64,000 bases of DNA from Pirellulales bacterium (GCA_041737535.1 JBGSRO010000107.1:6399-70398), one strand, 5' to 3'; shown: positions 1 to 46,317, numbered from the stretch's first letter. The notes: generated by a model from the sequence alone, not told the origin. Numbers and translations are program-made.

Positions 1-213
1 GGCGGCTTCGCACGAAGTGACGCAATCACGAAATCTAACGACTCCGACGCGTTCGCCCGAGCCGGTGATGGCGACGGTCGAACCGCCACCCCAAGTGATG
101 CGGACCGTGAGTACCGCCGCGAGGCAATTTGCCGCGCTGCGTCGCCAACGCACGGGGCAACGTCCGCTGCAATAAACGCATTTGTATGTGTCTCTGGCTG
201 TGAGGTCACAATC

Positions 214-1479
214 ATGGTTGCCACAACGGTTTCGATTCCTCGCTGGCAAGTTTCGCTACCACTGATGCTGGTAGTGGGAAGTGCCGTTGCGTTCTTGCTT
301 GGAGTCGCGCTGCGCAATCCCGGGCTGCTCGGGGGTGGTGCCGTCGCACTCTGCGCGACTTACCGCGAATGGCAACGCTGCCTGCCAACCCATGGAGTCG
401 ATGAAACCGACCGAGGCTGCCGCCGCGATAACGCGATTGGTCATCGTGCGACGTCGGCGCCGGCCGTCTCGGCGACGTCGACAGTGACGCCGACGATGCC
501 GCGATGTCGCCCGGCGACGAACACGGGCGATCTCGTCGACCAACTGATTTCGTCAGGACGCTACGCGTTGTTATTGCATCCCGATACGGCCGCGCATCTA
601 TGCGATCGCGACCGCGAGCGCGTTGTCGACGTGATGGAGCAGGCGATGTCGATTGTACCCGAGGGGCACGTGTTGGTCGGAGTTTCGGCCGAACGCGCCA
701 CCTGGGGCGGAACCACAGCCGCAGCGACCAACGACGGTGTGCAGTCAGTCGACGGATTTTACGTTGATCGCTTTGCCGTCACGAATGCCGACTTTCAGCA
801 TTTCGTCGACGCGGGGGCTTACGAAGACTTCGAGTTGTGGCCGGACGAAGCACTTCCAGCGCTATTCGAGTTCGTCGACCAGACGGGCGAGCCGGGTCCG
901 CGGTACTGGTCGAACGGCAGGCACGACCCGTCAGAGTCGACGCTACCCGTCGTCGGTGTCAGTTGGTATGAAGCGGCCGCCTATGCTCGTTGGGTCGGCA
1001 AGCGGCTCTTGAGCGATGCCGAATGGACCAAAGCGGCCGCGTGGCCTGTGGAAACAACGCCGGGCCACATCACCCAGCGCCGCTATCCGTGGGGCGACTC
1101 ATTCGAGTCGCGAAGAGCGAATCTCTGGAACTCGGCCGCCAATCGTCCGGTGCCGGTCGAAGATTACCCGCAAGGCAGCACGCTCGGCGGCGTCTATCAA
1201 CTCATCGGCAACGTCTGGGAGTGGACCTCTGGCGAGTTCGTTGAAGCGACCGAAGCTGCTTCGCCCGGCGAGAGTTTGCGCACGCTTCACGGCGGCGCAT
1301 TCAACACCTACTTCGAGAACCAAGCCACCTGTCACTTCCGCAGTGGCGAAGCCTCGCTGGCCCGCCGTGACAACATCGGGTTTCGGCTCGCGCTTTCGCT
1401 TAACGAAATAACCGACTTCGACGACGCCACGGAGGCCAAAGTGAATGGCCCCGTCATTTCCGCAGTGGCGGGAATCTAA
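214..1479 (+). CDS. Membrane-anchored protein with C-terminal formylglycine-generating-enzyme (FGE/SUMF1, DUF323)-like domain
   Basis: N-terminal hydrophobic segment (LPLMLVVGSAVAFLLGVAL). C-terminal region has FGE-family motifs (FYVDRFAVTNADFQHFV, GVSWYEAAAYARWVGKRL, RYPWGD, HGGAFNT). First gene of a +strand three-gene cluster. Confidence 0.7.
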   Translation: MVATTVSIPRWQVSLPLMLVVGSAVAFLLGVALRNPGLLGGGAVALCATYREWQRCLPTHGVDETDRGCRRDNAIGHRATSAPAVSATSTVTPTMPRCRPATNTGDLVDQLISSGRYALLLHPDTAAHLCDRDRERVVDVMEQAMSIVPEGHVLVGVSAERATWGGTTAAATNDGVQSVDGFYVDRFAVTNADFQHFVDAGAYEDFELWPDEALPALFEFVDQTGEPGPRYWSNGRHDPSESTLPVVGVSWYEAAAYARWVGKRLLSDAEWTKAAAWPVETTPGHITQRRYPWGDSFESRRANLWNSAANRPVPVEDYPQGSTLGGVYQLIGNVWEWTSGEFVEATEAASPGESLRTLHGGAFNTYFENQATCHFRSGEASLARRDNIGFRLALSLNEITDFDDATEAKVNGPVISAVAGI

Positions 1480-1583
1480 AGGGAAACGGTTGCGCCGAGA
1501 TTTCCGCTTGTGCGGCAAGCTCGCACTGCATCGTTGCCAAAGGTTTCTCGTTTACTCTGAATCACAAGAACGAGGTTTACACT

Positions 1584-2498
1584 GTGCCGACACTCACGAG
1601 TTCGCCCATCGAAACCTACTTGCTCGCCGGCCAAGCCGCGCCGCTCGCGTGTGGAGTTTGCCAATATGAAAATCGAATTTCAGCCGAGCGGTGCCACAAA
1701 TGCGTTGCCCCGCTGTCGATTGCGAGGCAGGCGAGCAAACGAAAACAGTTTCCCAAGCGAATCGCCGTGATTGGTGCCGCCGGCATCGGCAAGACGACCT
1801 ACCTCGGCATGTTGCTCGATATGCTGATGCGGCGGACCGTTTCGCTCGAAACGACACTGCTTGGCCCGCAGTCGATTTCGTTACAACAGATGACCACTAC
1901 GGCACTTGCCGCCGGATGGTATCCGGATAAGACGCCGCGTGATCCCGAGCAGTGGCACTGGGTTCATTGCCAAGTTGGCTGTGCGCGTCGCCGCCGGAAG
2001 ATCGACGCCGTGTTCGTCGACTTCCCGGGCGAAGCATTAGCAGCGAGCATCGACCATCCCGAAGACTTCCCTGCTGTGCGAGCGATGCTTACCGACTGTG
2101 CAGGCATCATGGTGCTCGCCGACGCGTCGCGGCTCCGCGCGGGCGAGCACGACGACGACTATCTTTCGCTCAAGTTGCTATCGATGGCGTCCGACTTGCG
2201 CACCGGTAGCAAACGTTGGTTGCGTCGCCCGGCGCTACCGCCACTGGCGTTTGTGCTGACTAAGAGCGATACCTCTCCTTCGTGCATGGACGACCCACTC
2301 GGGTTTGCCGAGAACCATGCCCACTCGCTTTGGACCGACGTGCAGCGGCGCTTCCCGGTTAGCGAAGCCTTCGCCGCGACGGTCGTCGGTGCGTCGGGCC
2401 CACGGGTCGTTGCCGGGCGACGGTGCCAAGTACCACTGCGCGTCGAACCGCGCGGCGTCGTCGAGCCCTTTGGCTGGTTGCTTTCGCACTTGAATTGA
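1584..2498 (+). CDS. Small Ras-like GTPase with N-terminal zinc-ribbon
   Basis: N-terminal CxxC..CxxC (CGVCQYEN...CHKCVAPL). G1/Walker A IGAAGIGKTT, G3 DFPGE (DxxG), G4 LTKSD (N/TKxD). 105 nt downstream of the FGE-like gene, same strand. Confidence 0.65.
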   Translation: MPTLTSSPIETYLLAGQAAPLACGVCQYENRISAERCHKCVAPLSIARQASKRKQFPKRIAVIGAAGIGKTTYLGMLLDMLMRRTVSLETTLLGPQSISLQQMTTTALAAGWYPDKTPRDPEQWHWVHCQVGCARRRRKIDAVFVDFPGEALAASIDHPEDFPAVRAMLTDCAGIMVLADASRLRAGEHDDDYLSLKLLSMASDLRTGSKRWLRRPALPPLAFVLTKSDTSPSCMDDPLGFAENHAHSLWTDVQRRFPVSEAFAATVVGASGPRVVAGRRCQVPLRVEPRGVVEPFGWLLSHLN

Positions 2499-2509
2499 GC
2501 ATCGAATGA

Positions 2510-2983
2510 GTGAACCTTGGACGAAGGACTGCGGTCTCTCGACTGGCGGCGGGGGCGTCTTGGCCCGCGATCCTTTCCGTTCCTGTCCTTCATCACGGTA
2601 CTTCCATGACAACCGACCCGCGTATTCAACCGCATCGTCTCAGCACCGACTCGTCGACGCCCGCGAAAATGCGTTGCGGCTCGCAAGTTGTGCGGGCCGA
2701 TGGTCAGGCAATCGACCCGATAGCGCTGAAAGCCGTCGAGCAACTCGACGACACGATGTTTGCCGCACTGGGTGGCGATGCCTCGGCGCTCGACGCGGTC
2801 GGTGGTCGCTTGCGTGCGGTCCGCCGACGCGTCGCGGCGAGTCTGATCGCCGAAGCCCGCGACAAATACATCGAACGTGCCGAGCAGACTTGGAACGATT
2901 ACCGCCGTGGCGACGAAGCAGACGTGGTCCGCGCGTTCGCGGCGCTCGATGTGCTGCTGATGCTCGAATTGGCGAACGACTGA
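2510..2983 (+). CDS. Hypothetical helical protein (third gene of FGE-GTPase cluster)
   Basis: GTG start 12 nt after the GTPase stop. Ala/Asp-rich helical sequence. The alternative overlapping frame 2506..3045 is Arg-rich junk. Confidence 0.45.
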   Translation: MNLGRRTAVSRLAAGASWPAILSVPVLHHGTSMTTDPRIQPHRLSTDSSTPAKMRCGSQVVRADGQAIDPIALKAVEQLDDTMFAALGGDASALDAVGGRLRAVRRRVAASLIAEARDKYIERAEQTWNDYRRGDEADVVRAFAALDVLLMLELAND

Positions 2984-3105
2984 AAATTCCCGCGCATCTT
3001 GGGTGGGAGTGGATTGGTGTTGTGATCTACCGGCGGCAAACGTGATTTGCAGTCACGGCGTCGCGATACCCTCGACCGCTTCCCAACCGTATGAAGAGAG
3101 AATGA

Positions 3106-4503
<1,398 letters not shown>

Positions 4504-12552: not shown

Positions 12553-12625
12553 GGACAGGTAGCTCAGTTGGTAGAGCACAGGACTGAAAATCCTGGTGTC
12601 GGGGGTTCGACCCCCCCCCTGTCCA
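12553..12625 (+). tRNA. tRNA-Phe (GAA)
   Basis: Cloverleaf read by eye: acceptor GGACAGG/CCTGTCC, D-arm GCTC-AGTTGGTA-GAGC, anticodon stem CAGGA/TCCTG with loop CTGAAAA (anticodon GAA), T-arm GGGGG-TTCGACC-CCCCC, discriminator A. Confidence 0.85.
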
Positions 12626-12642
12626 CTAGACATAAGTCGAAG
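12584..12642 (+). repeat. attL: island-proximal copy of the 58-59 bp direct repeat (3' part of tRNA-Phe plus ~17 bp)
   Basis: Sequence ctgaaaatcctggtgtcgggggttcgaccccccccctgtccactagacataagtcgaag recurs at 23626..23683. Confidence 0.8.
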
Positions 12643-13982: not shown

Positions 13983-14347
13983 TTTCGTTTGCAGTAGCCG
14001 GGCAGCAAATAAAGTTGCTCGGCTACTATTGACAGACAATAAAACGTCAGTAAGATTCGGTGCAGTCGCAAGGAAGAGCGACGCGGCGTCATTCGTGTAG
14101 GTTAGATGGGACTCGCTAAGGCGAGGCAAAACACCACGACGCAGACGCGGGATTGTTTCGAGCCTGCGGGCGGCATGATGCGTAGCGAAACAACAGCTCC
14201 AAGCCGAAGCACCCGTCGGCGAGGATCGAGTGTAGGGGAAGCCGGGGTACTTCTAAGGCCCACCGCTCCGGCTAGCGCCAGCAGCTTTCAACATCGAAAC
14301 TGCCGCTAGCTCCCCTGCATATTCTATCGGGTCTAGCGGCACCACTC

Positions 14348-14650
14348 TTGGGCCTTGCCATGACCGCCGAAATTGTACCGGGTGAAAAACTCTACCCACT
14401 GGCCGACGCAATTGAGAAAGCGACCGGCTATCGTCCCTCACCGTCGACCGTGTGGAGATGGAAGCTCCGCAAGGGCTTGCCATTCGTTTTGGTAGGAGCG
14501 ATCCCGCGCACATCGGTCGAAGCTGTCCACCGCTGGAATGAAGCGGCCACCGCCGCCGATCGTGGCGAGTCGCCGAAGGCCCGCACGAATCGCCAGCGTG
14601 AAGCGGGCATTGCGAAGGCCGAGCGTGCGCTGGCCGAAGCCGGTATCTGA
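14348..14650 (+). CDS. Small DNA-binding protein, possible excisionase/AlpA-like
   Basis: 100 aa. Putative HTH (STVWRWKLRKGLPFVLV). Lies directly after the integrase. Function inferred from position and motif only. Confidence 0.4.
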   Translation: MGLAMTAEIVPGEKLYPLADAIEKATGYRPSPSTVWRWKLRKGLPFVLVGAIPRTSVEAVHRWNEAATAADRGESPKARTNRQREAGIAKAERALAEAGI

Positions 14651-14744
14651 GAGTATCGCCGCCGAACCGGCAGGTGCGCGCGGCGCGCACCTGCCCGAGA
14701 GTAACCGCATTACCCCCGCTCCCCCAACAAACGCGACGCCCCCC

Positions 14745-15317
14745 ATGAACGATGAATTACAAGTCGTGATAAGCGAGAATCGACAGCAAGCGGCCGAGGA
14801 AGTTCTGAATCGCTTTCCGCAATGGAGCGACCGCCGTATCGCTAAGCTGTGCGGACTCTCGCCGACGACCATCAGAAAAGTTCGGCGTCGCTCGGCCGCT
14901 GCGTTGGCAGGCGCGCGCGGCGCGCGCCTGACCTCAGACGAGCCCGCAAAGCGAATCGGCGCGGATGGCAAGTCCTACCCGGCGACGACAACTAATCAAA
15001 AGAAAATGTCCGGTTTGCCCAGTTGCGCGCGAGGAAAGGACGAAAGCGAACCGAAGATAGAAGGGCATTTTAAGCCAACAAAGGAAAGCAGCGTGCAACA
15101 AGAAACAAACAAAGTGCCAAAAACGCCAGCGTTTGCGTCTGGCGAAACGTGGTTGACGATGGCGGAAGTAGTTGAGCGATGGCGAAGCTCCGCGCCGACC
15201 ATTCGCGCGATGGCCGCTCGCGGACGGATCAAAATGATTCGGCTTCTCGACAGGTCGCCGCGCATCGCGCTCTCTTCGGTGTTGGCCATCGAAAACGAAA
15301 CGATCGGCGATGACTGA
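14745..15317 (+). CDS. Island protein with two helix-turn-helix motifs (putative regulator)
   Basis: HTH-like SDRRIAKLCGLSPTTIRKVRRR and C-terminal LTMAEVVERWRSSAPTIRAMAARGRI. Start moved to the internal ATG at 14745; the track ORF begins at 14538. Confidence 0.45.
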   Translation: MNDELQVVISENRQQAAEEVLNRFPQWSDRRIAKLCGLSPTTIRKVRRRSAAALAGARGARLTSDEPAKRIGADGKSYPATTTNQKKMSGLPSCARGKDESEPKIEGHFKPTKESSVQQETNKVPKTPAFASGETWLTMAEVVERWRSSAPTIRAMAARGRIKMIRLLDRSPRIALSSVLAIENETIGDD

Positions 15318-15479
15318 GCCCGTCAAAACCATCGGCGATCTACTGCGCGAGCAGGCGCGAGAGCGTGAAGCCGAGCTGCAAACGAGCGACGGCCGCCGTG
15401 CTGAACGGACTGGCAGGACGCGCGAGGAAATCGAGCGAGACAGAATCCGAGACTCACTGAAAATCATGCGAGTGCCCCA

Positions 15480-16124
15480 GTGACGAACTGCAAAATTATC
15501 GAGCCCGACCTGAAAGAAAATCCCATCGTCTGTGGCGAAGAGGGCGACGGCATCGCGATGGGCGACCGAACGGCCGACGGGTTCGTGAGTCTGGAACTTC
15601 GGGGCTGTATCGACGAGGACTTGGCCGAGACCTTGGAGCAATGGAGCTGGCAACTCGCCAACCATGAAAAACGACGCGGCGGGATACTCTGGCTCGATTG
15701 CTGTGGTGCGGTGCTGACTCCCAAGCTGGTGCAAGCTATCAGTCACTTGATCGACGCGCACAACCGGGGCATACCGGTGTTTTGCGTTGTCGAGCGTGCG
15801 CTTGGCGGGTCGATGCTGCTCTCGACTGCGTGCTCCGAATCGTGGTCGCTTCCACTCGCGACCTTCGGTGGCTTTGTGTTCTCGCCACGCACTGGCGCGG
15901 TGGTGAATCGCAGGGAGTTCACCGGATCGGCCAATGCGTCGGTCCAATATCTGGAGCTGCTCACACCGGGAGCAAACTTGCGCAATCTCGACACCGTGTT
16001 TTCGGCCGAAGTGGCCGAAGCTCGCGGCTTGGTCGAATGCATTCGCAGCGACATTGCGACCGCCGACGATGCGATCGACTCGCTGCGAGAGTTCGTAGCT
16101 GACCACCCAAGTTTTCTTTTGTAA
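15480..16124 (+). CDS. Hypothetical protein, possible ClpP/crotonase-fold
   Basis: Segment GGILWLDCCGAVLTPKLVQAISHLIDAHN...VFCVVERALGGSMLLSTAC loosely resembles ClpP/S49-fold peptidases. Weak call. Confidence 0.3.
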   Translation: MTNCKIIEPDLKENPIVCGEEGDGIAMGDRTADGFVSLELRGCIDEDLAETLEQWSWQLANHEKRRGGILWLDCCGAVLTPKLVQAISHLIDAHNRGIPVFCVVERALGGSMLLSTACSESWSLPLATFGGFVFSPRTGAVVNRREFTGSANASVQYLELLTPGANLRNLDTVFSAEVAEARGLVECIRSDIATADDAIDSLREFVADHPSFLL

Positions 16125-16135
16125 TCGGAGTTGAG

Positions 16136-16525
16136 TTGATGATTGATTTTGATGCTGAACTGACGAACCGCAAAAACGCCATCGCCGCCGCGTGCATCGG
16201 GGCGGACGATGCGTTCATCATGGCCGCCATCGCCGCTGGGACTTCGGCCGAGGATGCGAGCCGACAATGGCAACAGAAGCTGATTGCCGAACGTGACAAA
16301 GCGACCACGGCCGCCGCCGCCAAGCAGCGCGGAACGCAGCTCACGGCTGGCGTACCCGGTGTCGACAGCGAAGAGGACTACGGCGCGATCGTCAAAGGCT
16401 TCATGGCGAAGGGCATGACTCGTTCGCAAGCCTGCCACAAGGCGGCGAAGCAGTACCCCGAAGCTCACGCGGCATTCGTTGCGAGCTGCCCCGCTCCGAC
16501 TCGCAAAAGCAAGTCACGGTCGTAG
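16136..16525 (+). CDS. Hypothetical island protein
   Basis: 129-aa Ala-rich ORF in an operon-like array. No recognisable motif. Confidence 0.3.
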   Translation: MMIDFDAELTNRKNAIAAACIGADDAFIMAAIAAGTSAEDASRQWQQKLIAERDKATTAAAAKQRGTQLTAGVPGVDSEEDYGAIVKGFMAKGMTRSQACHKAAKQYPEAHAAFVASCPAPTRKSKSRS

Positions 16526-16598
16526 TTCTTGGGTTGGGCCGGTGCGGTGGGATGGCTCCGGCCGCGCCGGTCCTTTTTTTCTTTGCGAGACTCACGCG

Positions 16599-17528
16599 AT
16601 GATGAGCGGCAAACTATTCGCGATTGCTCCCGGCCGAGCTTCCGATGCGGCACTGGCCGAGCCTGAGAATAGCTACTCAAGCTATCGAGTTGGCGGTTTG
16701 ACTGTTGTCGAAGTCGAGGGCGTGCTTGACGGCGCGATCACGAACCGCTTGCGGCGCGACGTGTTGCAAAGTGAACGAGACGAGTCGGTCACAGAGCGGA
16801 TCATTCTTTTTGATTCACCGGGCGGGTCGACCGACGGCAACGACGACTTAGCGGCCACGATCCGCGCGAGCCGAGAAGTGAAACCAATCACAGCCATCGT
16901 GCCATCGGTGGCAGCGAGTGCTGCGTACAACCTTGCCGCGAGCTGCTTGCGAATAGTTGCCAGCCCGGCCGCGAGCGTTGGTTCGATCGGCGTCTTTAGC
17001 GTGCTGGTTGACAGTAGTGAACAAGCGGCGTTGCTTGGCTTGCGAGTAATCGTCGTGCGAAGCGGCCGCTTCAAGGGCCTCGGCATTCCGGGCGTCGAGG
17101 TGACGCCCGAGCAAATTGAAAATCTACAGCGAACGGTCGACGGTCACGCGAGACTATTTCTCGCCAGCGTCGCGAAGGGCCGACGCATGGCGACCGGCAG
17201 ACTACAGGAGCTTGCCGACGGCTCGATGTACATGGCGAGTGAAGCGAAGGCCAACGGCTTAATCGACGAAGTGAAATCCGCTCACGACTATCTTGAAGAA
17301 CGAATCGAGTACCACACAGGGCAGGCGCGCGCGGCGCGCGCCTCGTGGCTGTCACAACCACGCGCGAAAGTCATAGAGGCTTATAGCGAAGCCGTGGCAA
17401 AAGAAACCGGCCGGAGTCTTCCACTCACGTCGGTCGAGCTGCGACGTTCGTTGGTCGACAGTCGTGAAGAGTATCGCGAGCTTGCAGAAGCATTCCACAA
17501 ATTGACTCGTAGCCACTCCGGAGCTTGA
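16599..17528 (+). CDS. S49-family serine peptidase (SppA / phage prohead protease-like)
   Basis: Motifs ILFDSPGGS, catalytic-Ser region VAASAAYNLAAS, C-terminal ...ASEAKANGLIDEV. Start at the internal ATG (MMSGKLF); the track ORF begins at 16479. Confidence 0.7.
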   Translation: MMSGKLFAIAPGRASDAALAEPENSYSSYRVGGLTVVEVEGVLDGAITNRLRRDVLQSERDESVTERIILFDSPGGSTDGNDDLAATIRASREVKPITAIVPSVAASAAYNLAASCLRIVASPAASVGSIGVFSVLVDSSEQAALLGLRVIVVRSGRFKGLGIPGVEVTPEQIENLQRTVDGHARLFLASVAKGRRMATGRLQELADGSMYMASEAKANGLIDEVKSAHDYLEERIEYHTGQARAARASWLSQPRAKVIEAYSEAVAKETGRSLPLTSVELRRSLVDSREEYRELAEAFHKLTRSHSGA

Positions 17529-17529
17529 A

Positions 17530-18423
17530 GTGACCACACCACTCGAAACGGCGAAAGCCAAACTGGCCAGTCGGCGAGCCGACTCACTCGGCGACATACT
17601 CGCTTTTGAAGAAATCCTACAGTCGCTCGACGGCAAATGGCGGATTTTGCCGGTCGATGAGCGAGCCATTGGCATGGCCGCTGGCGAGCTGAGTACCGAC
17701 TCTCGCGAAGATCGGCGTCGGTTGAGCGTCGCACTCAAGCGGCTCGATAGTGAGGCCGAGTTGCGTCGGCAGTACGGCACGGCCGAAGAGCGCGAAGCGA
17801 CGGTTCGCCGTTTGGAATCACAGCAGGCCGACTACGCTCGCGCAAAACAGTTTGCCGACGAATCCATCGCCGGAATCTTGCGTGCTCTCGCAGTCGAAGA
17901 GGGGAAGCTCGCGGCCATTCGCCAACGGCGGCAAGCGACGGTACAGGCACGGCAGAGCTTGCTAAGCCTTGCCCGCACGAAGCCGTGGCTCCATCGCATG
18001 AGCCAAGCCAGCTCGCTGCCGAAGCCGGAAGAGCTGGCCGCGCTGGAGCAGCAATCGCTACAGTTCAGGGACTTCTTGCGTTCCAAAGAGCAACTGCAAA
18101 AAGACCCGGCGATCCTCGCGCGAATCTACCCGGACCTCGTGACCGAGCGGGACGCACTCAAGCGGTCGTTGTTCGGCTGGGCGTTTGACCCCTACCAATC
18201 GCCGCCGTTGCGAGCTCCCGATCGACCCGCGAAGGGCTGGGTTATCGACGGCGAGCGACTCGCGATTGCGCGCCAAGCAATCACTGCTGAGTTGGTTAAG
18301 ATTGAAAGCCAGATCGCGGAGATAGGGGCCGCATGGCGTGGCGAGTTGGCCGACGGCGACCTGCTAGAACAGTGGGTAGAGCATGGGCTCCAAGGGCTGG
18401 TAGGCAACGCAGATGCGACGTGA
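17530..18423 (+). CDS. Hypothetical coiled-coil protein (island)
   Basis: 297 aa, begins 2 nt after the S49 peptidase stop. Helical and charged, with no motif I recognise. Confidence 0.4.
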   Translation: MTTPLETAKAKLASRRADSLGDILAFEEILQSLDGKWRILPVDERAIGMAAGELSTDSREDRRRLSVALKRLDSEAELRRQYGTAEEREATVRRLESQQADYARAKQFADESIAGILRALAVEEGKLAAIRQRRQATVQARQSLLSLARTKPWLHRMSQASSLPKPEELAALEQQSLQFRDFLRSKEQLQKDPAILARIYPDLVTERDALKRSLFGWAFDPYQSPPLRAPDRPAKGWVIDGERLAIARQAITAELVKIESQIAEIGAAWRGELADGDLLEQWVEHGLQGLVGNADAT

Positions 18424-18609
18424 GCAGGCAACCGCTGCGGCAGGCGCGCGCGGCGCGCGCCTGCCCGAGAGCGACGCCAGCGAGCCCTCAGCCCCCCCCT
18501 TTGGGTCCTTCCCGGGGGCCACCCGGGGTGAGGCTTTGCCCGCGATCTTGTGATATTTCCTCTCAGACGACTCCAAACTCCAAGTAAGTAAGCGGCAACT
18601 TGAGGCATC

Positions 18610-18894
18610 ATGTCAGACTTACCCAGCACCACCGCAGAGCAATTCGGAGAGCAGGTCGCCGCTCTGGATGATGCAATGCTCGCCACGCTGGAGCTGCCCG
18701 CGCTGGAGCCCGTGCGGCGGCACGTTCGCCGCTTGTTCGCGTGTCGGTACACAGGCGACTTGGGGAGTGACCTGTTGCTTAGCCAAGCTGCCGACTCGGC
18801 CGCTCGCGTCGCCTGTTGCTACGCGAGTGGCGACGCGAGCCGATGCGGTCGAGCCTTTACCTGCCCACACTGGGCGACCTGTTTGCCGTGCTAA
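18610..18894 (+). CDS. Hypothetical small protein (island)
   Basis: 94-aa ORF with good start context. No recognisable motif. Confidence 0.3.
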   Translation: MSDLPSTTAEQFGEQVAALDDAMLATLELPALEPVRRHVRRLFACRYTGDLGSDLLLSQAADSAARVACCYASGDASRCGRAFTCPHWATCLPC

Positions 18895-18911
18895 TAGACG
18901 AACGATAACCG

Positions 18912-19223
18912 ATGGGTGCTGACCTCAACTTAGTGTTCGCGGAGAAGGGCGCGGCAGGCGTGCTCCGGCAGCTCGCTTCGCTCAAGAGCGAAGCCAAGAA
19001 TGCGGGCAAAGAGATTGCCGCCCAGAACGCGGCCATCTCTAAGTCACAAAAGGAAATCGAACGCGCCTACCAGCAAACGCTCTCGCCAATCCAAAAGCTG
19101 GAGAATCAAGCCAAGTCGCTCGCCGCCGCGATCAAAGACACGAAGCTGCCAGACTTCGACCGTCGCAAGGCCGAGGCGGCGCTCGATGGTCGGAAGCATC
19201 GGAACGATTTACCCGCACGCTGA
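18912..19223 (+). CDS. Coiled-coil protein, possibly scaffold-like (island)
   Basis: 103 aa, Lys/Glu/Ala-rich heptad-like sequence (KSEAKNAGKEIAAQNAAISKSQKEIERAYQQ). Confidence 0.4.
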   Translation: MGADLNLVFAEKGAAGVLRQLASLKSEAKNAGKEIAAQNAAISKSQKEIERAYQQTLSPIQKLENQAKSLAAAIKDTKLPDFDRRKAEAALDGRKHRNDLPAR

Positions 19224-19551
19224 GTACAGCAAGCAACTCGAAACGGCTGGCATCGCGGTGACAGTTTTCACGAATTCCGACTCGCCGCGCAAGTCGCATG
19301 GCTCGCCTTACAAGGCGCTGGACGAATCGAGCCGATCGACATTGCAAGAATTCGTCGACAGCTATGGTCGACCATTCATCGAGGACGTTTCGAGGTATCG
19401 CGGAGTCGACGTTGACAAAGTCGTTTCGGACTACGGCGGCGGCGATGCACTCCGCGCGTCGGTCGCCATCAATAAGGGCGTGGTCGATCGCATCGTGCGC
19501 GACTTCGACGATACAATCAGCCGCATGATTCAAACCACCACGACGAGCTAA
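19186..19551 (+). pseudogene. Truncated S49-peptidase C-terminal fragment (paralog of 16599..17528)
   Basis: AGIAVTVFTNSDSPRKSHGSPY.../...LQEFVDSYGRPFIEDVSRYRGVDVDKV...GGGDALRASVAINKGVVDRIV parallels the C-terminal half of the upstream S49 protein. It lacks the catalytic Ser motif. Confidence 0.45.
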
Positions 19552-20213
19552 AAACCGAGGCGGCCATCGTCACACTTGCCGCTGGTATCCGCGGCTGGCG
19601 AAAAATGATCGACGGTCACAACCTTTGGTGGGCCAAGCTCAATGCCGAGCTGGAGCACATGGGCGAACGGCTCACAGAATTGCAGACACTTCGCGATCGG
19701 ATCATCGAGGAACTCGAAAGCGATCCGGCCGATTGGTGGAAAGATCAATAGCAACTGCGCGCGGCGCGCAGTTGAAAACCCGCTAGAAAACGAGGAGACG
19801 AACCAACAAAAAAATGAGCGACGCTGACATAGCCCCCTTTTGGGCAGAGAACGGAATAGAAGCGGCGATCCGGCTGAGGGGTTACACCCGTCGAAGCGAA
19901 CAACGTTGCGAAACGAGTGAAGCAATCGCGCGAGTAGGGGCACGCTGACAACTCCAGCCCCTAAGCGAACCGTACGACAGTCGTGGAGTGAATCGGGAAG
20001 TGCGACTGAATAAACAAAGTGCCCGAGCAAGTCGACGGCTGGCTCCGAAGTTTGCCATTTTCTTGCTCAACTCCATCTTCGGATGGAGTTGCTGCGCTCG
20101 GGCTTCACCAAAGTTTGCCGAAGGCAAACGAGCATTCGGTACAGCGCATAAAGAGAGCCGGTCAGGACGCTGACAAGGCTCCACCTGACCGGCTCAATAT
20201 TCAAGCTGCTTGA

Positions 20214-23683: not shown

Positions 23684-24014
23684 TCGAAGCCGATTGGTGA
23701 GTTGCGAATGCACATCGGCGATCGGGAGATCGCCGCAATCGTGGCCGTCGACGATGCGACCATCCAGCCCACCAGCAAGAGCTAAACCGAGGTTGTGGCT
23801 GACCTGTTTCGGCTCCGGCACCTTTTTCGGCTCCGGCAATTCGTGCAATGGAAGCCAGAAGAGGCTCGTCCTCAACAGCAGGTCACTTCGCCAGAGGTCA
23901 ATTGGCCATTTGGCGGGCTAGACCTTTATGACAGGTGGCTCAATCTTCAGGGAGCAGTCCAGTTTAAGGAAAAGCCGAAGAGAGGGGCCGCTTTTTGAGC
24001 GGCAACACCCTGAG

Positions 24015-24096
24015 CGGAGGACAAGGGACTCGAACCCTCAACCCCTTGCGGGGCAACTGATTTCGAATCAGTCTGCTAGCCATTCGCTTATCCTCC
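24015..24096 (-). tRNA. tRNA-Ser-like (predicted anticodon CGA), type II
   Basis: On the minus strand: acceptor GGAGGAT/GTCCTCC, anticodon stem ACTGA/TCAGT with loop TTCGAAA, long variable arm (GCCCCGCAAGGGG), T-arm GAGGG-TTCGAGT-CCCTT. I could not fold the D-arm cleanly by eye. Confidence 0.55.
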
Positions 24097-33028: not shown

Positions 33029-34420
33029 TTATCGCTTCTCGTTCATCGTTTCCTTCTTTCCCGCATACTGATTCGTCGACAGCTTCGCACGAATTTTCTC
33101 TTTCAAGTTTTCGATAACCGATTGCTTGTCGGTGTGATCGAGAATTCGTTTGACAACGTGTTTTGCGCCTTGATCGCCCCAGCTTGCTCCATTCTCAAAG
33201 TAATACCGGGCCGCTTGGCCGACGATGTAAGAACCATAGCCGGCGGCAACGCCTTGGGGTAGGGCCGTTAAAACGGTACTCGCTCCCAGCGTCAAGCCTT
33301 TGATAAGGCTCGACGTCCAGCTCACGGCCAGTTCGCCCGCGATCACCCACCCGGCCGCTTTCAAGATCGACGTGACCAGTTTCACCGCGCCAGTCTTGGT
33401 AATCTCGATACCGTACATGCGCCCCATCATAATGACCATCGTCGCATCGATCGCCGAGCCACCGACGACATCGAATGCCGGATGGGGGTTGAGCGCTACC
33501 GCCACTGCCTTCAACCCGGCATACGTCCAAATCAGTTGTGTCGCTTTTTCGCTACGAAGCTGCACTCGAAGTGCCGCCATTCGATCGCTGCGGTCGGCGG
33601 CGAACATTGACGCATTGAGCGCCACCAACTCTTTGCCATCGCGCTCGAGCACTTCGACAATGCGCTCGCGGAGTTCGTCGATCTGCACGGGAGGCTTGCG
33701 CCACTCGCTGCGCGTGCTGCCATCGGCGCTTTCGATGATGTATTCGACCCGCCGCGGGTCGGCCTTGGTCGTCACTATATTTGCCGGATCGACGAGCCCG
33801 GCGAGCCGTTTTTCGCGAAACAGCGTGAGCAGCGAATCGAGTTCGTCGGGCGTGTAGAGGTCGGCTTTATTGAGTACCAGAATCAGCGGTTTGTAACTCG
33901 CAGCGAGTTCCACCAGTGCCGAGTATTCGGTTTCGTTCAGGTCGCTGTCGGTGACAAAGAGCACAAGGTCGGCCCGGCCGGCCACGTCGCGAGCCATCGC
34001 CGTGCGACTTGCGCCATCAACTTCGTTGAGCCCTGGCGTATCGAGCAGCACGATGCTCGAGTTCTCGAAGCCGGGCACACAGTAGCCAACCCCTTCCCAA
34101 GTCACATGCCAGACGTCTTTCGTCCAACCGCCACGAATGTCGACCGCAGTGGCGGCTCGCCCGACCAGTGCATTGATGAGCGCACTTTTGCCGGTGCTAA
34201 TTTCGCCAAAGATAGCGATCTCGACCCGCTGGTCGCGAAGCTTGGCGGCCATCTCACGCAAACCACGAATGTCGGCCGCGAGTGCCTCGCGCTCGCTATC
34301 TGTGCAGCCCTTGATACGCTCGAGTGCCGCCTCGACCGACCGCAGCGCAGCGCTGAGCTCGTCATCTTGAGGTTCCGCTTTGGAGATGGTCTCTGGCATG
34401 TCTGATATTGTCGCCGCCAT
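33029..34420 (-). CDS. GTP-binding protein (MMR_HSR1-type GTPase with C-terminal DUF697-like membrane domain)
   Basis: G1 GEISTGKSALINALVG. G3 DTPGL. G4 NKAD. C-terminal hydrophobic domain. Confidence 0.65.
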   Translation of the reverse strand: MAATISDMPETISKAEPQDDELSAALRSVEAALERIKGCTDSEREALAADIRGLREMAAKLRDQRVEIAIFGEISTGKSALINALVGRAATAVDIRGGWTKDVWHVTWEGVGYCVPGFENSSIVLLDTPGLNEVDGASRTAMARDVAGRADLVLFVTDSDLNETEYSALVELAASYKPLILVLNKADLYTPDELDSLLTLFREKRLAGLVDPANIVTTKADPRRVEYIIESADGSTRSEWRKPPVQIDELRERIVEVLERDGKELVALNASMFAADRSDRMAALRVQLRSEKATQLIWTYAGLKAVAVALNPHPAFDVVGGSAIDATMVIMMGRMYGIEITKTGAVKLVTSILKAAGWVIAGELAVSWTSSLIKGLTLGASTVLTALPQGVAAGYGSYIVGQAARYYFENGASWGDQGAKHVVKRILDHTDKQSVIENLKEKIRAKLSTNQYAGKKETMNEKR

Positions 34421-34459
34421 CGCGAAGAGGGTGGATCGGAGTTCAATGAGCCGCCATCG

Positions 34460-36022
34460 TCAAATGGGGGGTGGGTCGATATCGATTTCTTGCCTCCCGG
34501 TCGTAATCAGCTTTCGCAGCTCATCGACCCTGGTCAGGTCTTTCCACTGGCGGCGGGCCAGCTCGGCGATGCCTCCCGCCGTCGGCTTCATTTCGTTCTT
34601 GAAGTATTCCTTAAACACTCGGCCAATCCAGCGAGTCACAAGCGCCTGAACCAAGCCTTGTAGCAACTTCGCCGCCAGATAGCCCACGCCTGGAACCGTT
34701 ACAATGAGCCCCCCGATACCGGCCGTCACTGCCGGCGCGGCAACGCTCGCTCCGAGCATCGCGACCAAACTCTTCGCCATCTGTGAAAGGATTTCGATAA
34801 TCGCGTCGGCGTCAATTCTCTGCTTGTAAACGTCGGCAATGTCGAGCACCATCTTCACCGTGATCGCCGTGCCGCCGGCCATGTCGAGAAACGGAATTGG
34901 GTTAGCCGCCGTTGCTCCGGCGGCGGCCCACATGTATCGGTTGATGAGCCGTTCGGCTTCGTCGTCGAGCGCGAGCTGCACGCGCCCCTTCGCTTCGTCG
35001 ATGAGCCCCCGGCTCTGCATCAATAGGTTCATCAGCAGTAGCGACGCTCGTTCTCGAGTGACGATTTCGACCAACCGGTTCGCGAGTGGCGTAATGTCGG
35101 GGGGTTCTTTAATGGTCATTGCCTGCTCGCTTCCATCGGCCGAAACGCGCATCGCCACTCGCTCGACCGAGCGCGAACGAACCGCCAGCAGATCTTGGGA
35201 GAAGACTGGCGGACAGACTTGCTCGCGGAGTTGCCCCAACAGACCATCCAGTTGTGTCGGATCGTACCAATCGGCTTTGTTAAGGCAAACGAGCACTCGC
35301 TTTTGCATGTTGCCGAGCCGATCGAGTAAGTCGTGTTCGTAATCCTTCAGCGGTCCGTCGACGACCAACAGCACGAGGTCGGCCGTCTCGGCTGCCGCCA
35401 GCGCTTCGCGACCATGAATTTCGCCGGCCACTTCGGCAAGGCCGGGCGTGTCGGTCAATACTATCCGGTCACGACCCGGCCAATCGATTTGGCTGCGCGT
35501 AATGGTCGTCCCCCCGACGACCCCCGAGCAAAACACCTCGCGACCGGCGAGCGCATTGAGCAGCGAGCTTTTGCCGCTGCTAATGGTGCCAAATGAGATG
35601 ATTTCGATCGTCTGCGACTCGCGTTTTTCTTCAAGGTCGGTCACGGCATCGTGAATCTGTCGCTTGAGCGCGTCGCTGAGCCGTCCGCTCGCGAACATTC
35701 GTCCTGCGGAGAGATTCTCGTCGAGTTCCGATTGTTTGTCCTTCGCCGAAAGCTTCGTCGGGTCGGTCGCGCGCCGGGTTTCAGTTTTCTGCTTGCTGAG
35801 CGTGTTGCCATAGACCTTCGCCAGCAGCCATACGACGAGCGAAAGCAGCAGCAAAGCTCCGATTACGACGATCGCCAAGTAAAGATAACCGACCACGGCG
35901 TTCATCGCGGCGGCAGCCGCGTATTGCTCAATGACTTTTGGCGGCACCGTAACGAGCAAATAGCCAATGACCCCAAGCGTACAAACGAGTACGAGTCCAA
36001 AGGCAGTTTTTTGTCGGGGCAT
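34460..36022 (-). CDS. Membrane-anchored GTP-binding protein (paralog of 33029..34420)
   Basis: N-terminal TM helices. G1 GTISSGKSSLLNALAG. G3 DTPGL. G4 NKAD. DUF697-like C-terminus. Confidence 0.65.
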   Translation of the reverse strand: MPRQKTAFGLVLVCTLGVIGYLLVTVPPKVIEQYAAAAAMNAVVGYLYLAIVVIGALLLLSLVVWLLAKVYGNTLSKQKTETRRATDPTKLSAKDKQSELDENLSAGRMFASGRLSDALKRQIHDAVTDLEEKRESQTIEIISFGTISSGKSSLLNALAGREVFCSGVVGGTTITRSQIDWPGRDRIVLTDTPGLAEVAGEIHGREALAAAETADLVLLVVDGPLKDYEHDLLDRLGNMQKRVLVCLNKADWYDPTQLDGLLGQLREQVCPPVFSQDLLAVRSRSVERVAMRVSADGSEQAMTIKEPPDITPLANRLVEIVTRERASLLLMNLLMQSRGLIDEAKGRVQLALDDEAERLINRYMWAAAGATAANPIPFLDMAGGTAITVKMVLDIADVYKQRIDADAIIEILSQMAKSLVAMLGASVAAPAVTAGIGGLIVTVPGVGYLAAKLLQGLVQALVTRWIGRVFKEYFKNEMKPTAGGIAELARRQWKDLTRVDELRKLITTGRQEIDIDPPPI

Positions 36023-41277: not shown

Positions 41278-42885
41278 ATGTTTTCCGGACTCGCTATGCT
41301 CGTCGGCGTCGGCCTTGCGATTGCGCTGCTTGTGCTTTCGGCTCAGTTAAATGGTTTGTTGCGAATTGCCGCGGCCACCGGTGCGGCTGTGGTGCTGTTC
41401 GCTGGTTTTACGCTGGCCAGCTTTGTCTACGTCGACGAAGATTCCGTCGGCCTTGTCACCAAAGAATGGGCCTTTGCGACCTTGCCCTCTGGCAAAATCA
41501 TCGCAACCGAGGGCGAAATGGGGCCACAGGCCAACATTCTCGGCCCCGGCTGGCACCCTTGGTATTGGCCAATGGTCTATAGCATTGACCTAGTGCCCCT
41601 CACCAACATCGAAAAGGGGAACCAGGGCATCATCACGGCTCGCGATGGGCTACCGCTTCCCGACGGGTCGGCTTACGCTCCCGAATGGACTGACGAACAA
41701 AAAAAGCAGATGACCGATGCCAAGTTTTTCTTGACCGAAGGGGGGGGCTATCGCGGACCGCAGGCGAGTGTTTTGGAGCCGGGTAGCTACCGCATCAACA
41801 CCAAACTGTTCGAAGTCAAGCAAGTCGAATTCGTCGACGTCGCAAAAGCGTCGGTCGGTGTCGTCAAGAGCAACGTTGGTGAACCAGCCGGTCCGCCCGC
41901 AGAGGGAGAGAGAGCGACTCGTTCGACACGGCTAGTGCTCGACGACCAACGGGGCATCCGCCGCGACCCGCTCACACCGGGACAGTATTACCGCAATACC
42001 GACGCCTATGAGATCACCAACATTTCGACAGCCAAACAAGTGACTCGTTACACCGACGCGACGTCGCGTCAGTCGGGCGAACACGAAGAGAGCCAAATCA
42101 TCGTCCGCACCAGCGACGGTTTCACGTTTCCGGTCGATGTCCGTGTTGAATACGAAATCGAACCGGCCAACGCGCCGCTGTTGGTGGCGACCGTTGGCGA
42201 CGATCAAGAAGGTCTGCGGAAGGTGATGAATTCGCAGGTGCGGGCCATCTTCCGCAACAATGCCGAGACGGTGAAGGCACTCGACTACGTGAAACAGCGC
42301 TCGCAACAGGAATCGCAATCGCTCAACATGTTGCAGGACGAGATGAGCCTGATTGGGGTGACCGTCACCGGAGTGCGAATCGGCGACGTGGGCGACGAAG
42401 AGACGCTCGGCACGCTGCTCAAGACGCAAACCGACCGTGAGTTGGCGCTGCAGGAACAAGAGACGTTCAAAGAACAGCAACGAGCGGCCGAACAGAAGAA
42501 AGAACTGACGCGCACCGAGCAAGAAGCAGAAGAAGAAAAGCGATTGGCCACTGCCAAATATGGTGTGCAAATTGGCGAACAAGACAAGCTGAAACAAATC
42601 ATCGAAGCCGAGGCCGAGGCCGAAGCGGTGAAAATCAAAGCCGAAGCCCAGGCGAACGCCTATCAGTTGATCGCCGAGCAAATCGGCAAAGGCAACGCCG
42701 CCCTGGTCGAAGTCTTAAAAGTCGTCGGCGAAAGTGGCATCGAAATCACCCCTCGGGTGATGGTCGTCAACGGCGCGAATGGCACCCCAAGCGGCGGCCA
42801 GATGGTTGGCGGCGACGCCCAAACCACGGCGCTGATTGGCACAATGCTTGACTCGATGATCTCAAAAGAGGAGCCGGCGAAGTAG
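41278..42885 (+). CDS. Flotillin-like SPFH/band-7 protein
   Basis: N-terminal TM region, SPFH-like core, long EA-rich coiled-coil (EAEAEAEAVKIKAEAQA). Start at the internal ATG (MFSGLAM). Confidence 0.7.
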   Translation: MFSGLAMLVGVGLAIALLVLSAQLNGLLRIAAATGAAVVLFAGFTLASFVYVDEDSVGLVTKEWAFATLPSGKIIATEGEMGPQANILGPGWHPWYWPMVYSIDLVPLTNIEKGNQGIITARDGLPLPDGSAYAPEWTDEQKKQMTDAKFFLTEGGGYRGPQASVLEPGSYRINTKLFEVKQVEFVDVAKASVGVVKSNVGEPAGPPAEGERATRSTRLVLDDQRGIRRDPLTPGQYYRNTDAYEITNISTAKQVTRYTDATSRQSGEHEESQIIVRTSDGFTFPVDVRVEYEIEPANAPLLVATVGDDQEGLRKVMNSQVRAIFRNNAETVKALDYVKQRSQQESQSLNMLQDEMSLIGVTVTGVRIGDVGDEETLGTLLKTQTDRELALQEQETFKEQQRAAEQKKELTRTEQEAEEEKRLATAKYGVQIGEQDKLKQIIEAEAEAEAVKIKAEAQANAYQLIAEQIGKGNAALVEVLKVVGESGIEITPRVMVVNGANGTPSGGQMVGGDAQTTALIGTMLDSMISKEEPAK

Positions 42886-43199
42886 GGCCGTCGATGCGAA
42901 AAACGGGCGATTCACCCCGTTCGTGAGCGCGATAATCGGGTGCCATGCCCGCAGAGGTGATCGGTCGATAGGAACATGCCAGCACGCGGCGCCAGCAAGT
43001 GATTTCAAGGCTCACTCGCTGGCGTGTCGTGCTTGTGTACTGGTATGTTTTCATCATCTGCTTGCCTCAGGGGCCCATGCAGCGCGACTTGGCTGACAGA
43101 ATGGACTAGCACCACTCCTGCCAATTGTGCTAATTGTCGGGGGAAAGCCATCGGTAGAATAGTGTGGCTTTGAACTGACATTACAGGAAATTCGTTGCC

Positions 43200-45074: not shown

Positions 45075-46317
45075 TCAACAAGCTTAGTAGAACTCGCCAA
45101 AGTCTTTGGCTTCTCGTTAGGCAATTCGCTTATTTCGGCGTCCGCCGATGCCCGGGCCGGGGTTGTGCTGTGCGCTCTTGCGACGAGCACGTTTGCGAAG
45201 CGCCTTATACGACTTGCGGCTGTAGTCGTTCCGACGGTGTTCGTCTTGGTCGCCCGAGTTGTGGCCGAAGTCGATGTCGGCGTTGATGAGGTAGCTGGCA
45301 ACCGGGCTTGTGTATTCCATGAGTGCGATCCCTTGCGATGATTTGAACAGTAGCAAACCTAGAGCTGTTGATGATGCGATTAGCGATAGCCGGTGAAGGC
45401 CTTCGCGCGACGGTGAGACAGCAAGATGTGTGCCGAAGCGAGATTCGCAGATCGACGATTTCGACCGCGAGCCGCTCGCGATGAAAAAACGCCGGTAATC
45501 TGTGATCGATTCCCGTCTTCTCAATCAATACTCTGGCATTTCGTCGGGCGGTCGGCCATTGAACAATGGTCTGCAATGCACCTGCCTGGTGTATCGCTCA
45601 TCAAATGCCGTAAGTTGTTGCCTGCCAACGATTTGTAAATCGGCCACGAACATCTGGCCACTTGGCGGACGCTAAATCACAACAGTCAAAGCACCGCAAC
45701 TAGTGACGCCACAAGAGTTTACGCATGGTCCACAAAAGCGAGGAGACGGTTTCACAATAATTGTGAAACACCCCTCTTGCAGTGGGTGGCGGAACACGGC
45801 GCGCAGCTCCGCCACAAGTCGGTCGACTCGCAGGAAGTCGTAACCGGTCCAGGGCACAACCCGACCTATGCCTCGGTTGGCAGTTCGTGAGCAGCAGGCG
45901 CGACTCGTCGCAGCGTCGTGCTCGATCGTGTTTCGCCGTTCGGTACCGATAAGGTTGCCAACGGTCAACACACTCGCGCGCGCCAGCGACAACCGCTGTT
46001 CGAATTTTCTGGCTGAGACGAAATCAGCCACTGTTTCGGTTTCGTCGTAGCGAAACGTAGCCACGCAAGTTGCGCGTTCATTCGCCAGCTGAGGGGCAAT
46101 TAACGTGCCCCGCCAACTACGAAGTGAAGGATTTCACCATTCGGCAGCTCCTCAGCACCGCCCTTACGACGCATTGCCCGCCCGCAGTGAGTTTGCTACC
46201 ATGCGGGACTTGCGAGTGGTCAAAGTAGGTGGGTCATCGTGCGCCCATGGGCTGCTAGCAGAGTCTCTAACCCCTGAGGCGAGTCGGCGTTTGCCCGATT
46301 CGCCGAATGTGAGTCAA

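Follow-up and report, generated by a model that had tools for sequence, protein, structure and literature searches.

Double-GTPase (DO-GTPase) systems were defined computationally by Kaur, Burroughs, Iyer, and Aravind (eLife 2020; PMC7159879). In the portions of that paper drawn on here, they are built around TRAFAC GTPases with a Walker-B glutamate and often with N-terminal zinc ribbons, which occur in 60% of the family and number two in GAP1-N2 systems, and the protein GAP1 (N1 or N2, M, and C domains) is encoded downstream of the GTPase. The partners are a GASH protein (N1 type) or a rapidly evolving FNIII-repeat protein (N2 type), along with variable effectors. Paired paralogous GTPase genes, the source of the name, are found in 38% of the systems and are not obligatory. 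Versions with an FGS domain are mentioned for planctomycetes, with FGS as an “effector”; all DO-GTPase systems are interpreted there as conflict systems, and GAP1-C is suggested to couple effectors. Our literature search returned no experimental work on DO-GTPase/GAP1 systems, which in the sources at hand are known from this one comparative-genomics study and, beyond it, from passing citation only. Here, we describe a member of this family, encoded at the start of a 64,000-nucleotide (nt) stretch from a Pirellulales bacterium (JBGSRO010000107.1:6399-70398). The whole stretch is referred to as the window, and all coordinates are window positions.

The placement of the locus in the DO-GTPase family, as a reduced form of the planctomycete, FGS-containing branch of GAP1-N2 systems, is secure, because the GTPase scores above the Pfam cut-off, carries an acidic Walker-B residue and a zinc ribbon, and has orthologues followed by genes for GAP1-N2 proteins. 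The module is a variant of a computationally known class and reveals no new kind of system. An earlier note on this DNA, made from the sequence alone, could not assign the locus to any characterized pathway; as far as the class is described in the parts of PMC7159879 used here, it fits the GAP1-N2 type of DO-GTPase system, itself a computational definition only. The text part of the supplementary data of that study holds no planctomycete entries to match against the architecture described below.

The unit comprises at least four genes, encoding a coiled-coil protein (O0), a membrane-tethered FGE-like (“FGS”) protein, the GTPase, and a GAP1 C-terminal domain (GAP1-C), of which the window holds the 3′ three and a quarter (Table 1). 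Across the window and 80 loci from a scan of one genome per species with two clade-specific peptide patterns, the invariant core in Pirellulales consists of the coiled-coil protein, the FGS protein, and the GTPase. GAP1, supposedly the defining component, is dispensable in parts and is encountered as N-M-C, N-M, C, or not at all. The unit behaves as a vertically inherited chromosomal gene set and not as a mobile defense island. This minimal four-protein version is suited to biochemistry and raises the question of an endogenous role for this branch of a “conflict system.”

A single zinc-ribbon DO-GTPase

In a Pfam scan, the GTPase clears the gathering cut-off of 27 for both models of the family (PF19993 / PF19975), with 53.7 bits for DO-GTPase2 (E 3e-14) and 29.2 bits for DO-GTPase1, and shows no Ras, Roc, or Arf match. 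The label “Ras-like small GTPase,” which the protein had been given earlier, is rejected, since NCBIfam small_GTP (TIGR00231) scores only 12.1 bits against a cut-off of 42.5. We detect 172 homologues, essentially all of them Pirellulales proteins of ~300 to 320 amino acids (aa); among the homologues listed, DO-GTPase2 is found in all, and both DO-GTPase domains are found in all but one. One GTPase gene is present per locus, in the window and in all related loci, and no paralogue of any component is seen in the 64 kb.

The zinc ribbon and the G1, G3, and G4 motifs pointed out in the earlier note are upheld by conservation across 77 orthologues: the P-loop GxxxxGK[TS], D..G[E/D], and [TSA]KxD are conserved, and the four ribbon cysteines are kept in 76, with one ribbon present and not two. 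Within DFPGE, the D and G are invariant (77/77), and the acidic position is occupied by E or D in 72/77. E150, the residue right after the DxxG glycine, stands at the position of the “Walker B glutamate” that is the hallmark of the family, which is also the position of Gln61 in Ras (DxxGQ motif). The C-terminal PLRVEP motif surpasses parts of the G-domain in conservation (P, R, E, and P in 77/77 and L in 76/77); as a guess, its arginine would be a candidate arginine finger or partner-binding residue.

A Foldseek search with the AlphaFold model of the GTPase (predicted local distance difference test [pLDDT], 70.8; predicted template modeling [pTM] score, 0.72) returns TRAFAC GTPases only, namely, YcjX as the top match, Lokiarchaeal Rag, Rab27, MglA, Sar1, GBP1, and septin. 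The matches are weak, with template modeling (TM) scores of 0.3 to 0.45 and 9 to 14% identity. Because TRAFAC proteins alone are matched, and at low TM-scores, the model points to a genuine but divergent TRAFAC G-domain, so that the presence of such a domain, proposed earlier from motifs, finds support in both the Pfam profiles and the predicted fold.

A stand-alone GAP1 C-terminal domain

The third gene had been read as encoding a 157-aa protein starting 12 nt after the GTPase stop. This open reading frame (ORF), from GTG 2510 (11 nt past the stop), is not retained, as its first part shows no codon-position bias: mismatches between the window and its 93%-identical relative L001 fall on the three codon positions as 17/18/18 in 2510-2668 (9/10/9 in 2510-2605 and 8/8/9 in 2606-2668) and as 15/14/52 in 2669-2983. 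Since the substitution bias is confined to 2669-2983, we place the start at ATG 2669, 170 nt after the GTPase stop, which yields a product of 104 aa. Gene calls for it differ, with 104 aa in L001, the closest relative, and 125 aa in the record from which the identical protein P0121 derives.

The helical character proposed for this protein stands, as AlphaFold2 (AF2) predicts a four-helix bundle (pLDDT, 88.3); its standing as an orphan does not. No match below E = 1 is obtained in a fold search of the bundle against the PDB, and no Pfam model is matched in the region at E ≤ 1. In distant loci, the gene after the GTPase encodes 450 to 580 aa, with Pfam GAP1-N2 at the N terminus (53 to 59 bits, cut-off 24) and then a weak GAP1-M, and the last ~100 residues of these proteins align with the 104-aa protein, sharing invariant E, D, G, R, and Y positions. 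The bundle is by position the third globular domain of planctomycete GAP1, and sequence homology to the GAP1-C of other phyla is not supported by a Pfam or PDB match. A word-based homologue search with the 104-aa protein alone gave three proteins, and a profile search was used instead. An exhaustive HMMER search with the profile recovers 498 cluster representatives, with the domain C-terminal in every one. The proteins carrying it are of two sizes, short (~95 to 200 aa) and long (~430 to 670 aa), and the long ones that were tested are GAP1-N2 proteins. Against a database clustered at 90% identity, the profile matches 522 proteins, of which the best 120 are all short stand-alone forms. These alignments indicate that the third gene encodes the C-terminal domain of GAP1 standing alone.

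Local hidden Markov models (HMMs) sort the gene downstream of the GTPase in 82 loci into C only (39 loci), N+M+C (16 loci), N+M only (15 loci), and none (12 loci, some at contig ends). Within the 64-kb window, the GAP1-N and GAP1-M HMMs find no match. In the GTPase tree, the C-only form makes up one large monophyletic clade in which the window and its relatives together number 35 tree members and span ~50 to 93% GTPase identity. The other main clade is mostly N-M-C, with a subclade in which N-M is derived and a single independent occurrence of C-only. The tree suggests that the window’s whole clade has lost the N2 and M domains of GAP1. The downstream-gene classes and their distribution over the tree thus present GAP1 as labile and O0-FGS-GTPase as the constant core.

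The spacer between the GTPase and GAP1-C genes occupies the place that GAP1-N2/M holds in other clades and keeps patches conserved with the 93% relative, e.g., GTGAACCTTGG, TTCCGTTCCTGTC, and CACTTCCATGA; it could contain an internal promoter or regulatory element or, alternatively, be a deletion scar. Two deviating architectures are also observed. P0244 (438 aa) has an N-terminal FAD/NAD-binding region (NAD_binding_8/amine-oxidase) followed by GAP1-M and the C-terminal bundle, and here GAP1-N2 appears to have been replaced by a flavoprotein Rossmann domain, unless the gene call is chimeric. At L005:7330-8865, the GAP1-C bundle ends a 511-aa ORF whose N-terminal ~430 aa are unrelated, with a faint DUF4185-like match; this ORF comes from a metagenome-assembled genome (MAG) of the MFD series and is possibly a frameshift fusion.

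A noncatalytic FGE-like partner

The membrane-anchored FGE-domain protein announced in the earlier note is confirmed by a near full-length match of its domain to PF03781 and by an N-terminal hydrophobic segment. Among solved structures, the domain is closest to the C-terminal domains found in EgtB and OvsA, then to SUMF2 and true FGEs. The catalytic, Cu-binding Cys336 and Cys341 of human FGE align with T365 and E368 of the window protein, and across 74 orthologues these positions hold T in 72 and E or D in 67, and never Cys. The loop around the replaced cysteines is nearly invariant in the same orthologues and reads RGGAF(D/N)TYFENQATC(H/Q)F. No DinB/3-His domain is found in Pfam and NCBIfam scans, the N terminus being a membrane hairpin and linker, and the NCBIfam models for EgtB (101.6 bits against a cut-off of 360), SenA (75 against 420), and OvoA (60 against 400) match the FGE-like part only. 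Since the Cys pair is replaced and the DinB/3-His domain is missing, the protein would be neither an FGE nor a sulfoxide synthase, and the FGE-like domain is best seen as a noncatalytic binding module. Of the two roles first suggested for it, ligand binding is retained, and an oxidative role is unlikely with neither Cu-binding cysteines nor a DinB/3-His domain.

Pirellulales genomes are rich in sulfatases. The initial impression of a neighborhood free of them holds for the window, as no sulfatase signature (CxPxR, by regular expression only) is found in window ORFs of at least 300 aa. In just one of the 82 loci (L051:9181-10677), a sulfatase (Pfam Sulfatase + SGSH_C) follows GAP1 at a distance of ~500 nt, probably by chance adjacency.

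Identity to the window protein across loci averages 51% for FGS and 48% for the GTPase (r = 0.92), from which the FGS domain emerges as a constant, co-evolving partner and not as a hypervariable module or one of the diversity-generating retroelement (DGR) type. At its N terminus, a hydrophobic segment at residues 11 to 36 (Kyte-Doolittle hydropathy over 19 residues [KD19], at least 1.6) is followed by a glycine-rich second segment and then an Arg-rich stretch. The hydrophobic anchor is found in 48 of the 62 orthologues with a well-defined start; the other 14 are without a hydrophobic segment or signal peptide. From the hairpin with its basic flank (positive-inside rule), the 14 anchorless orthologues, and the coupling to a cytoplasmic GTPase, we infer an N-in/C-in topology with the domain in the cytoplasm.

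A variable coiled-coil protein upstream

The frame-2 translation of 2-175 ends in ...PPPQVMRTVSTAARQFAALRRQRTGQRPLQ* and matches the C terminus of a 123-aa gene located between carA and the FGE gene in L001, which shows that the window start cuts the unit within O0. The description of the locus as a three-gene operon is therefore right about ORFs that are real and under selection (the FGS and GTPase ORFs exist on the plus strand as claimed, with a gap of 104 nt) and too narrow in leaving out the gene upstream. In 66 of 76 loci, the FGE gene is immediately preceded by the end of an ORF with the O0 C-terminal motif (consensus DPVLGSVVAQFEKLRQQRARRR; DPVxxSVxAQFxxLR/Q..RRR). The O0 coiled-coil proteins range from ~120 to 520 aa, some with internal tandem repeats. 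The window copy is divergent, scoring 7.7 bits to the O0 motif HMM, and the version shared by the window and L001 is short. In two other loci (L044:3068-4621 and L054:1583-3160), O0 consists in part of near-perfect tandem repeats of ~45 to 50 aa (...DEQLKEMLEA.Q.ER.ELRG.QESLREELGRLA...), and this repeat expansion points to rapid length evolution.

Relative to L001, the ratio of nonsynonymous to synonymous substitution rates (dN/dS) is 0.030 for the GTPase, 0.079 for FGS, 0.077 for GAP1-C, and 0.53 for the O0 tail.

Gene order and probable vertical inheritance

The co-occurrence of the FGE-like gene, the GTPase gene, and a small-protein gene, first seen in the window, recurs in other genomes: the order is carA, small ORF, FGE, GTPase, small ORF in both L001 and Aeoliella mucimassa (L002), and wherever a related locus includes upstream DNA, the FGE-like gene immediately precedes the GTPase gene, the two often overlapping by 4 nt. 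By record title, 79 of the 80 scan loci belong to Planctomycetota (Lacipirellulaceae, Pirellulaceae, Thermoguttaceae, and two Isosphaeraceae), and the exception, L046, bears the title Candidatus Nealsonbacteria, possibly through mis-binning. The module is flanked across families by carA (47 loci) and asnS (32 loci). Two orders are observed, asnS>module>carA< (e.g., L012, L015, L059, and L068) and carA>module>asnS<, the latter in the window’s lineage (L001/L002), where all four genes seem to have been inverted together in place.

Pairwise identities of the GTPase and of the adjacent carA are correlated (Mantel r, 0.48; Spearman, 0.65), and none of 2,000 permutations reached the observed value. 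A tblastn search with the GTPase against plasmid and phage collections gave no match, which is weak evidence given how seldom planctomycete replicons are represented in them. The remaining neighbors that were scanned, both in the window and around full-GAP1 loci, are housekeeping genes unrelated to the module, and FNIII, toxin, and nuclease domains are absent from them. In PADLOC-DB v2, FGS and GAP1-C have no match, and the GTPase yields only P-loop noise (E ≥ 0.014). A vertically inherited, chromosomally fixed, nonmobile module fits these observations better than a mobile one. The carA-asnS site, the co-divergence with carA, and an FGS as conserved as the GTPase thus favor a vertical switch over a mobile, diversifying defense system.

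Two module copies on different contigs are found in one MAG (JBIOWO01; L016 and L036), either as a true duplication or through strain heterogeneity or contamination of the bin. An apparent 687-aa FGS-GTPase fusion at L068:4828-6891 was not used as evidence, being one frame shift from the usual ATGA overlap and from an MFD-series MAG; other MFD records (L062 and L017) show obvious frameshifts, and the fusion may be an indel error.

Table 1. Features of the DO-GTPase module, in window coordinates
Feature	Position	Strand	Basis or remark
O0 3′ end (last 57 codons + stop), small coiled-coil protein with basic C-terminal tail	2..175	+	Cut by window start
Membrane-tethered, putatively noncatalytic FGE-like (“FGS”) protein, 421 aa	214..1479	+	Pfam FGE-sulfatase, E 1e-41
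Predicted N-terminal hydrophobic hairpin anchor (residues ~11-50), then basic stretch	244..363	+	Hydropathy scan
FGE-sulfatase fold domain, residues 143-393	640..1392	+	Pfam match to 3-254 of 255 profile positions
Conserved loop HGGAFNTYFENQATCHFRSGE in place of FGE active-site CxxxxC	1288..1350	+	Alignment with human FGE
Zinc-ribbon DO-GTPase, 304 aa	1584..2498	+	Pfam DO-GTPase2 + DO-GTPase1
Single CxxC...CxxC zinc ribbon (C23, C26, C37, C40)	1650..1703	+	Conservation in orthologues
G-domain motifs: P-loop GAAGIGKT (64-71), Walker B/G3 DFPGE (146-150), G4 TKSD (226-229)	1773..2270	+	Conservation counts
GTPase C-terminal motif PLRVEP (284-289)	2433..2450	+	Near-invariant in 77 orthologues
170-nt noncoding spacer, GTPase to GAP1-C gene	2499..2668		No third-position substitution bias versus L001
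Predicted stand-alone GAP1 C-terminal domain, 104-aa four-helix bundle	2669..2983	+	AF2 model, profile alignment

Downstream of the module, the opposite strand carries asnS, an ApbE-family gene, and the Nqr operon. The G+C content of 1-4000 is 0.61, ordinary for the window, and a promoter and terminator scan of 1-3300 gave no signal over shuffled expectation.

A proposed membrane-proximal switch and its alternatives

We propose, at a probability of about one half, that the module acts as a GTP-gated, membrane-proximal switch with a conserved endogenous role, e.g., in membrane/envelope or cell-state surveillance. FGS would be anchored to the membrane by its N-terminal hydrophobic hairpin, on the cytoplasmic side, and its conserved noncatalytic pocket would bind a conserved ligand or partner, for which the conserved C-terminal tail of O0 is a candidate. 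The zinc-ribbon GTPase would be the nucleotide-dependent switch, probably in homodimeric form and with E150 where Ras has Gln61; in many lineages, its gene and the FGS gene are translationally coupled. The four-helix bundle may serve as an adaptor linking the GTPase to its partners, and the coiled-coil O0 as a scaffold or oligomerizing output. With dN/dS values of 0.03 to 0.08 for the FGS, GTPase, and GAP1-C genes, and with a C-only form that defines a 35-member clade, function appears to be retained. The general idea of the earlier note, a GTPase-centered sensor-plus-switch system for signaling or conflict rather than sulfatase maturation, is supported by the conservation of the triad, by a genuine G-domain, and by the loss of the catalytic Cys pair.

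Several observations weigh against an endogenous role. All functional statements on the DO-GTPase family are computational, and in the parts of their paper cited here Kaur et al. read these systems as conflict systems. The length range and fast evolution of O0 (~120 to 520 aa) and the gain and loss of GAP1 domains are reminiscent of arms-race parts. Familiar cultivated Pirellulales, among them Rhodopirellula and Blastopirellula, are absent from the scan hits, so the distribution is possibly patchy, although the scan consisted of two clade-specific peptide patterns only. The Mantel correlation is only moderate, and the plasmid and phage collections hold few planctomycete elements.

The strongest competing explanation, which we regard as tentative and less probable than an endogenous role, is immunity against invaders, in which FGS would bind and neutralize a component of an incoming phage or other invader, the threshold for activation would be set by the GTPase, and a containment structure would be assembled from GAP1-C and the coiled-coil protein. 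Membership of the DO-GTPase/GAP1-N2 class, with FGS given as a planctomycete “effector” in the portions of PMC7159879 used, speaks for it, as do the membrane proximity of FGS, the possibly patchy distribution among cultured Pirellulales, and the rapidly evolving, length-variable O0 and the labile GAP1 architecture, which keep a conflict role alive. It sits poorly with an FGS that is as conserved as the GTPase and has a nearly invariant putative binding loop, with the low dN/dS, with the fixed carA-asnS site and co-divergence with carA, and with the lack of any plasmid, phage, or PADLOC match; no toxin, nuclease, TIR, pore, or peptidase effector was found either. We favor the endogenous role over a conflict role because of the constancy of FGS, the purifying selection, the fixed locus, and the missing killing effector.

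A further reading, rather unlikely in our estimate, is that the module has nothing to do with immunity and is a lineage-conserved GTPase machine at the cytoplasmic membrane of Pirellulales, made up of a coiled-coil scaffold, the membrane-tethered FGS, the zinc-ribbon GTPase, and a helical adaptor. It would have been exapted out of a conflict-system chassis for a task in cell biology, e.g., polarity, budding division, or the organization of the envelope.

That the module is a decaying remnant, i.e., a complete DO-GTPase/GAP1 system inactivated by the loss of GAP1-N2/M and whose remaining genes are transient, is very improbable. The defining N2 and M domains are indeed missing from the window, O0 is shortened and divergent in its sub-lineage, and GAP1 is lost entirely in some lineages. 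Decay would, however, be difficult to square with strong purifying selection on FGS, GTPase, and GAP1-C, with intact catalytic motifs throughout, with a C-only architecture that is stable in a monophyletic clade spanning ~50 to 93% GTPase identity, and with the many profile matches of the C-terminal domain, the best 120 of 522 being short and stand-alone. Finally, the reading as an enzyme locus, in which the FGE-like protein would mature sulfatases or be a sulfoxide synthase of the EgtB/OvoA type and the GTPase would be an accessory or metallochaperone-like factor, has in its favor the good Pfam FGE-sulfatase match, EgtB and OvsA as best solved relatives, and the sulfatase gene at L051, and is already largely refuted by the replacement of the Cu-binding Cys pair (T, E/D) in all 74 orthologues, the missing DinB/3-His domain, EgtB, SenA, and OvoA scores far under their cut-offs, and a sulfatase neighbor at one locus only, with no signature in the window ORFs examined, which leaves it the least probable of all.

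Other features of the window

A pair of adjacent ORFs on the minus strand (33029-36022; 463 and 520 aa), the second with an MMR_HSR1/dynamin-like GTPase domain and DUF697, encodes membrane-associated GTPases unrelated to the DO-GTPase module. Also on the minus strand, a 1,401-aa ORF (50234-54439) has an N-terminal vWA domain (VWA_3) as its sole recognizable domain. At the gathering threshold, Rfam reports a single tRNA in the whole window (tRNA-Phe, 12553-12626); ARAGORN places a tRNA-Ser(cga) at 24014-24096 on the minus strand, which Rfam does not report at that threshold. AT skew is markedly positive (0.16 to 0.19) in 14000-20000 and 42000-48000 compared to the rest of the window.

Comparison with known systems

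Among more distant relatives, SUMF2/pFGE and the C-terminal domains of EgtB and OvsA share with FGS the FGE/C-type-lectin-like fold, the lack of the FGE Cys pair, and a use in binding; FGS differs in being membrane tethered and, by inference, cytoplasmic, in having no DinB partner domain, and in its own loop GGAF(D/N)TYFENQATC. The DGR variable proteins (Mtd and TvpA) and the cyanobacterial vWA-FGS effectors likewise employ this fold as a nonenzymatic binding domain in conflict systems. DGR proteins, however, have a hypervariable C-terminal region, whereas the FGS loop is nearly invariant in the 74 orthologues, and no reverse transcriptase is found among the neighbor genes scanned. The module resembles small-GTPase switches for polarity or stress (MglA/MglB and YcjX) in its TRAFAC G-domain, in a dedicated partner encoded alongside, and in its likely function as a switch. 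The likeness in fold is distant, and the zinc ribbon, the PLRxEP region, and the partners differ, so that this is analogy and not membership.

The closest relatives remain the GAP1-N2 DO-GTPase systems. As far as the portions of PMC7159879 at hand describe them, the shared features are a zinc-ribbon GTPase with an acidic Walker-B residue, an FGS partner, an association with the membrane, and, right after the GTPase gene, one derived from GAP1; the full GAP1-N2/M/C is kept in orthologous Pirellulaceae and Thermoguttaceae loci. In contrast to those systems, GAP1 in the window’s clade is reduced to the C-terminal bundle, and there is one GTPase and not two, and one zinc ribbon and not two. The module is without an FNIII-repeat protein and has the length-variable coiled-coil O0 in the accessory position, a protein absent from that part of the description, and FGS is a constant core partner here rather than a variable effector. 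It is, moreover, chromosomally fixed and not in a mobile neighborhood, with variation confined to the length of O0 and the domain content of GAP1.

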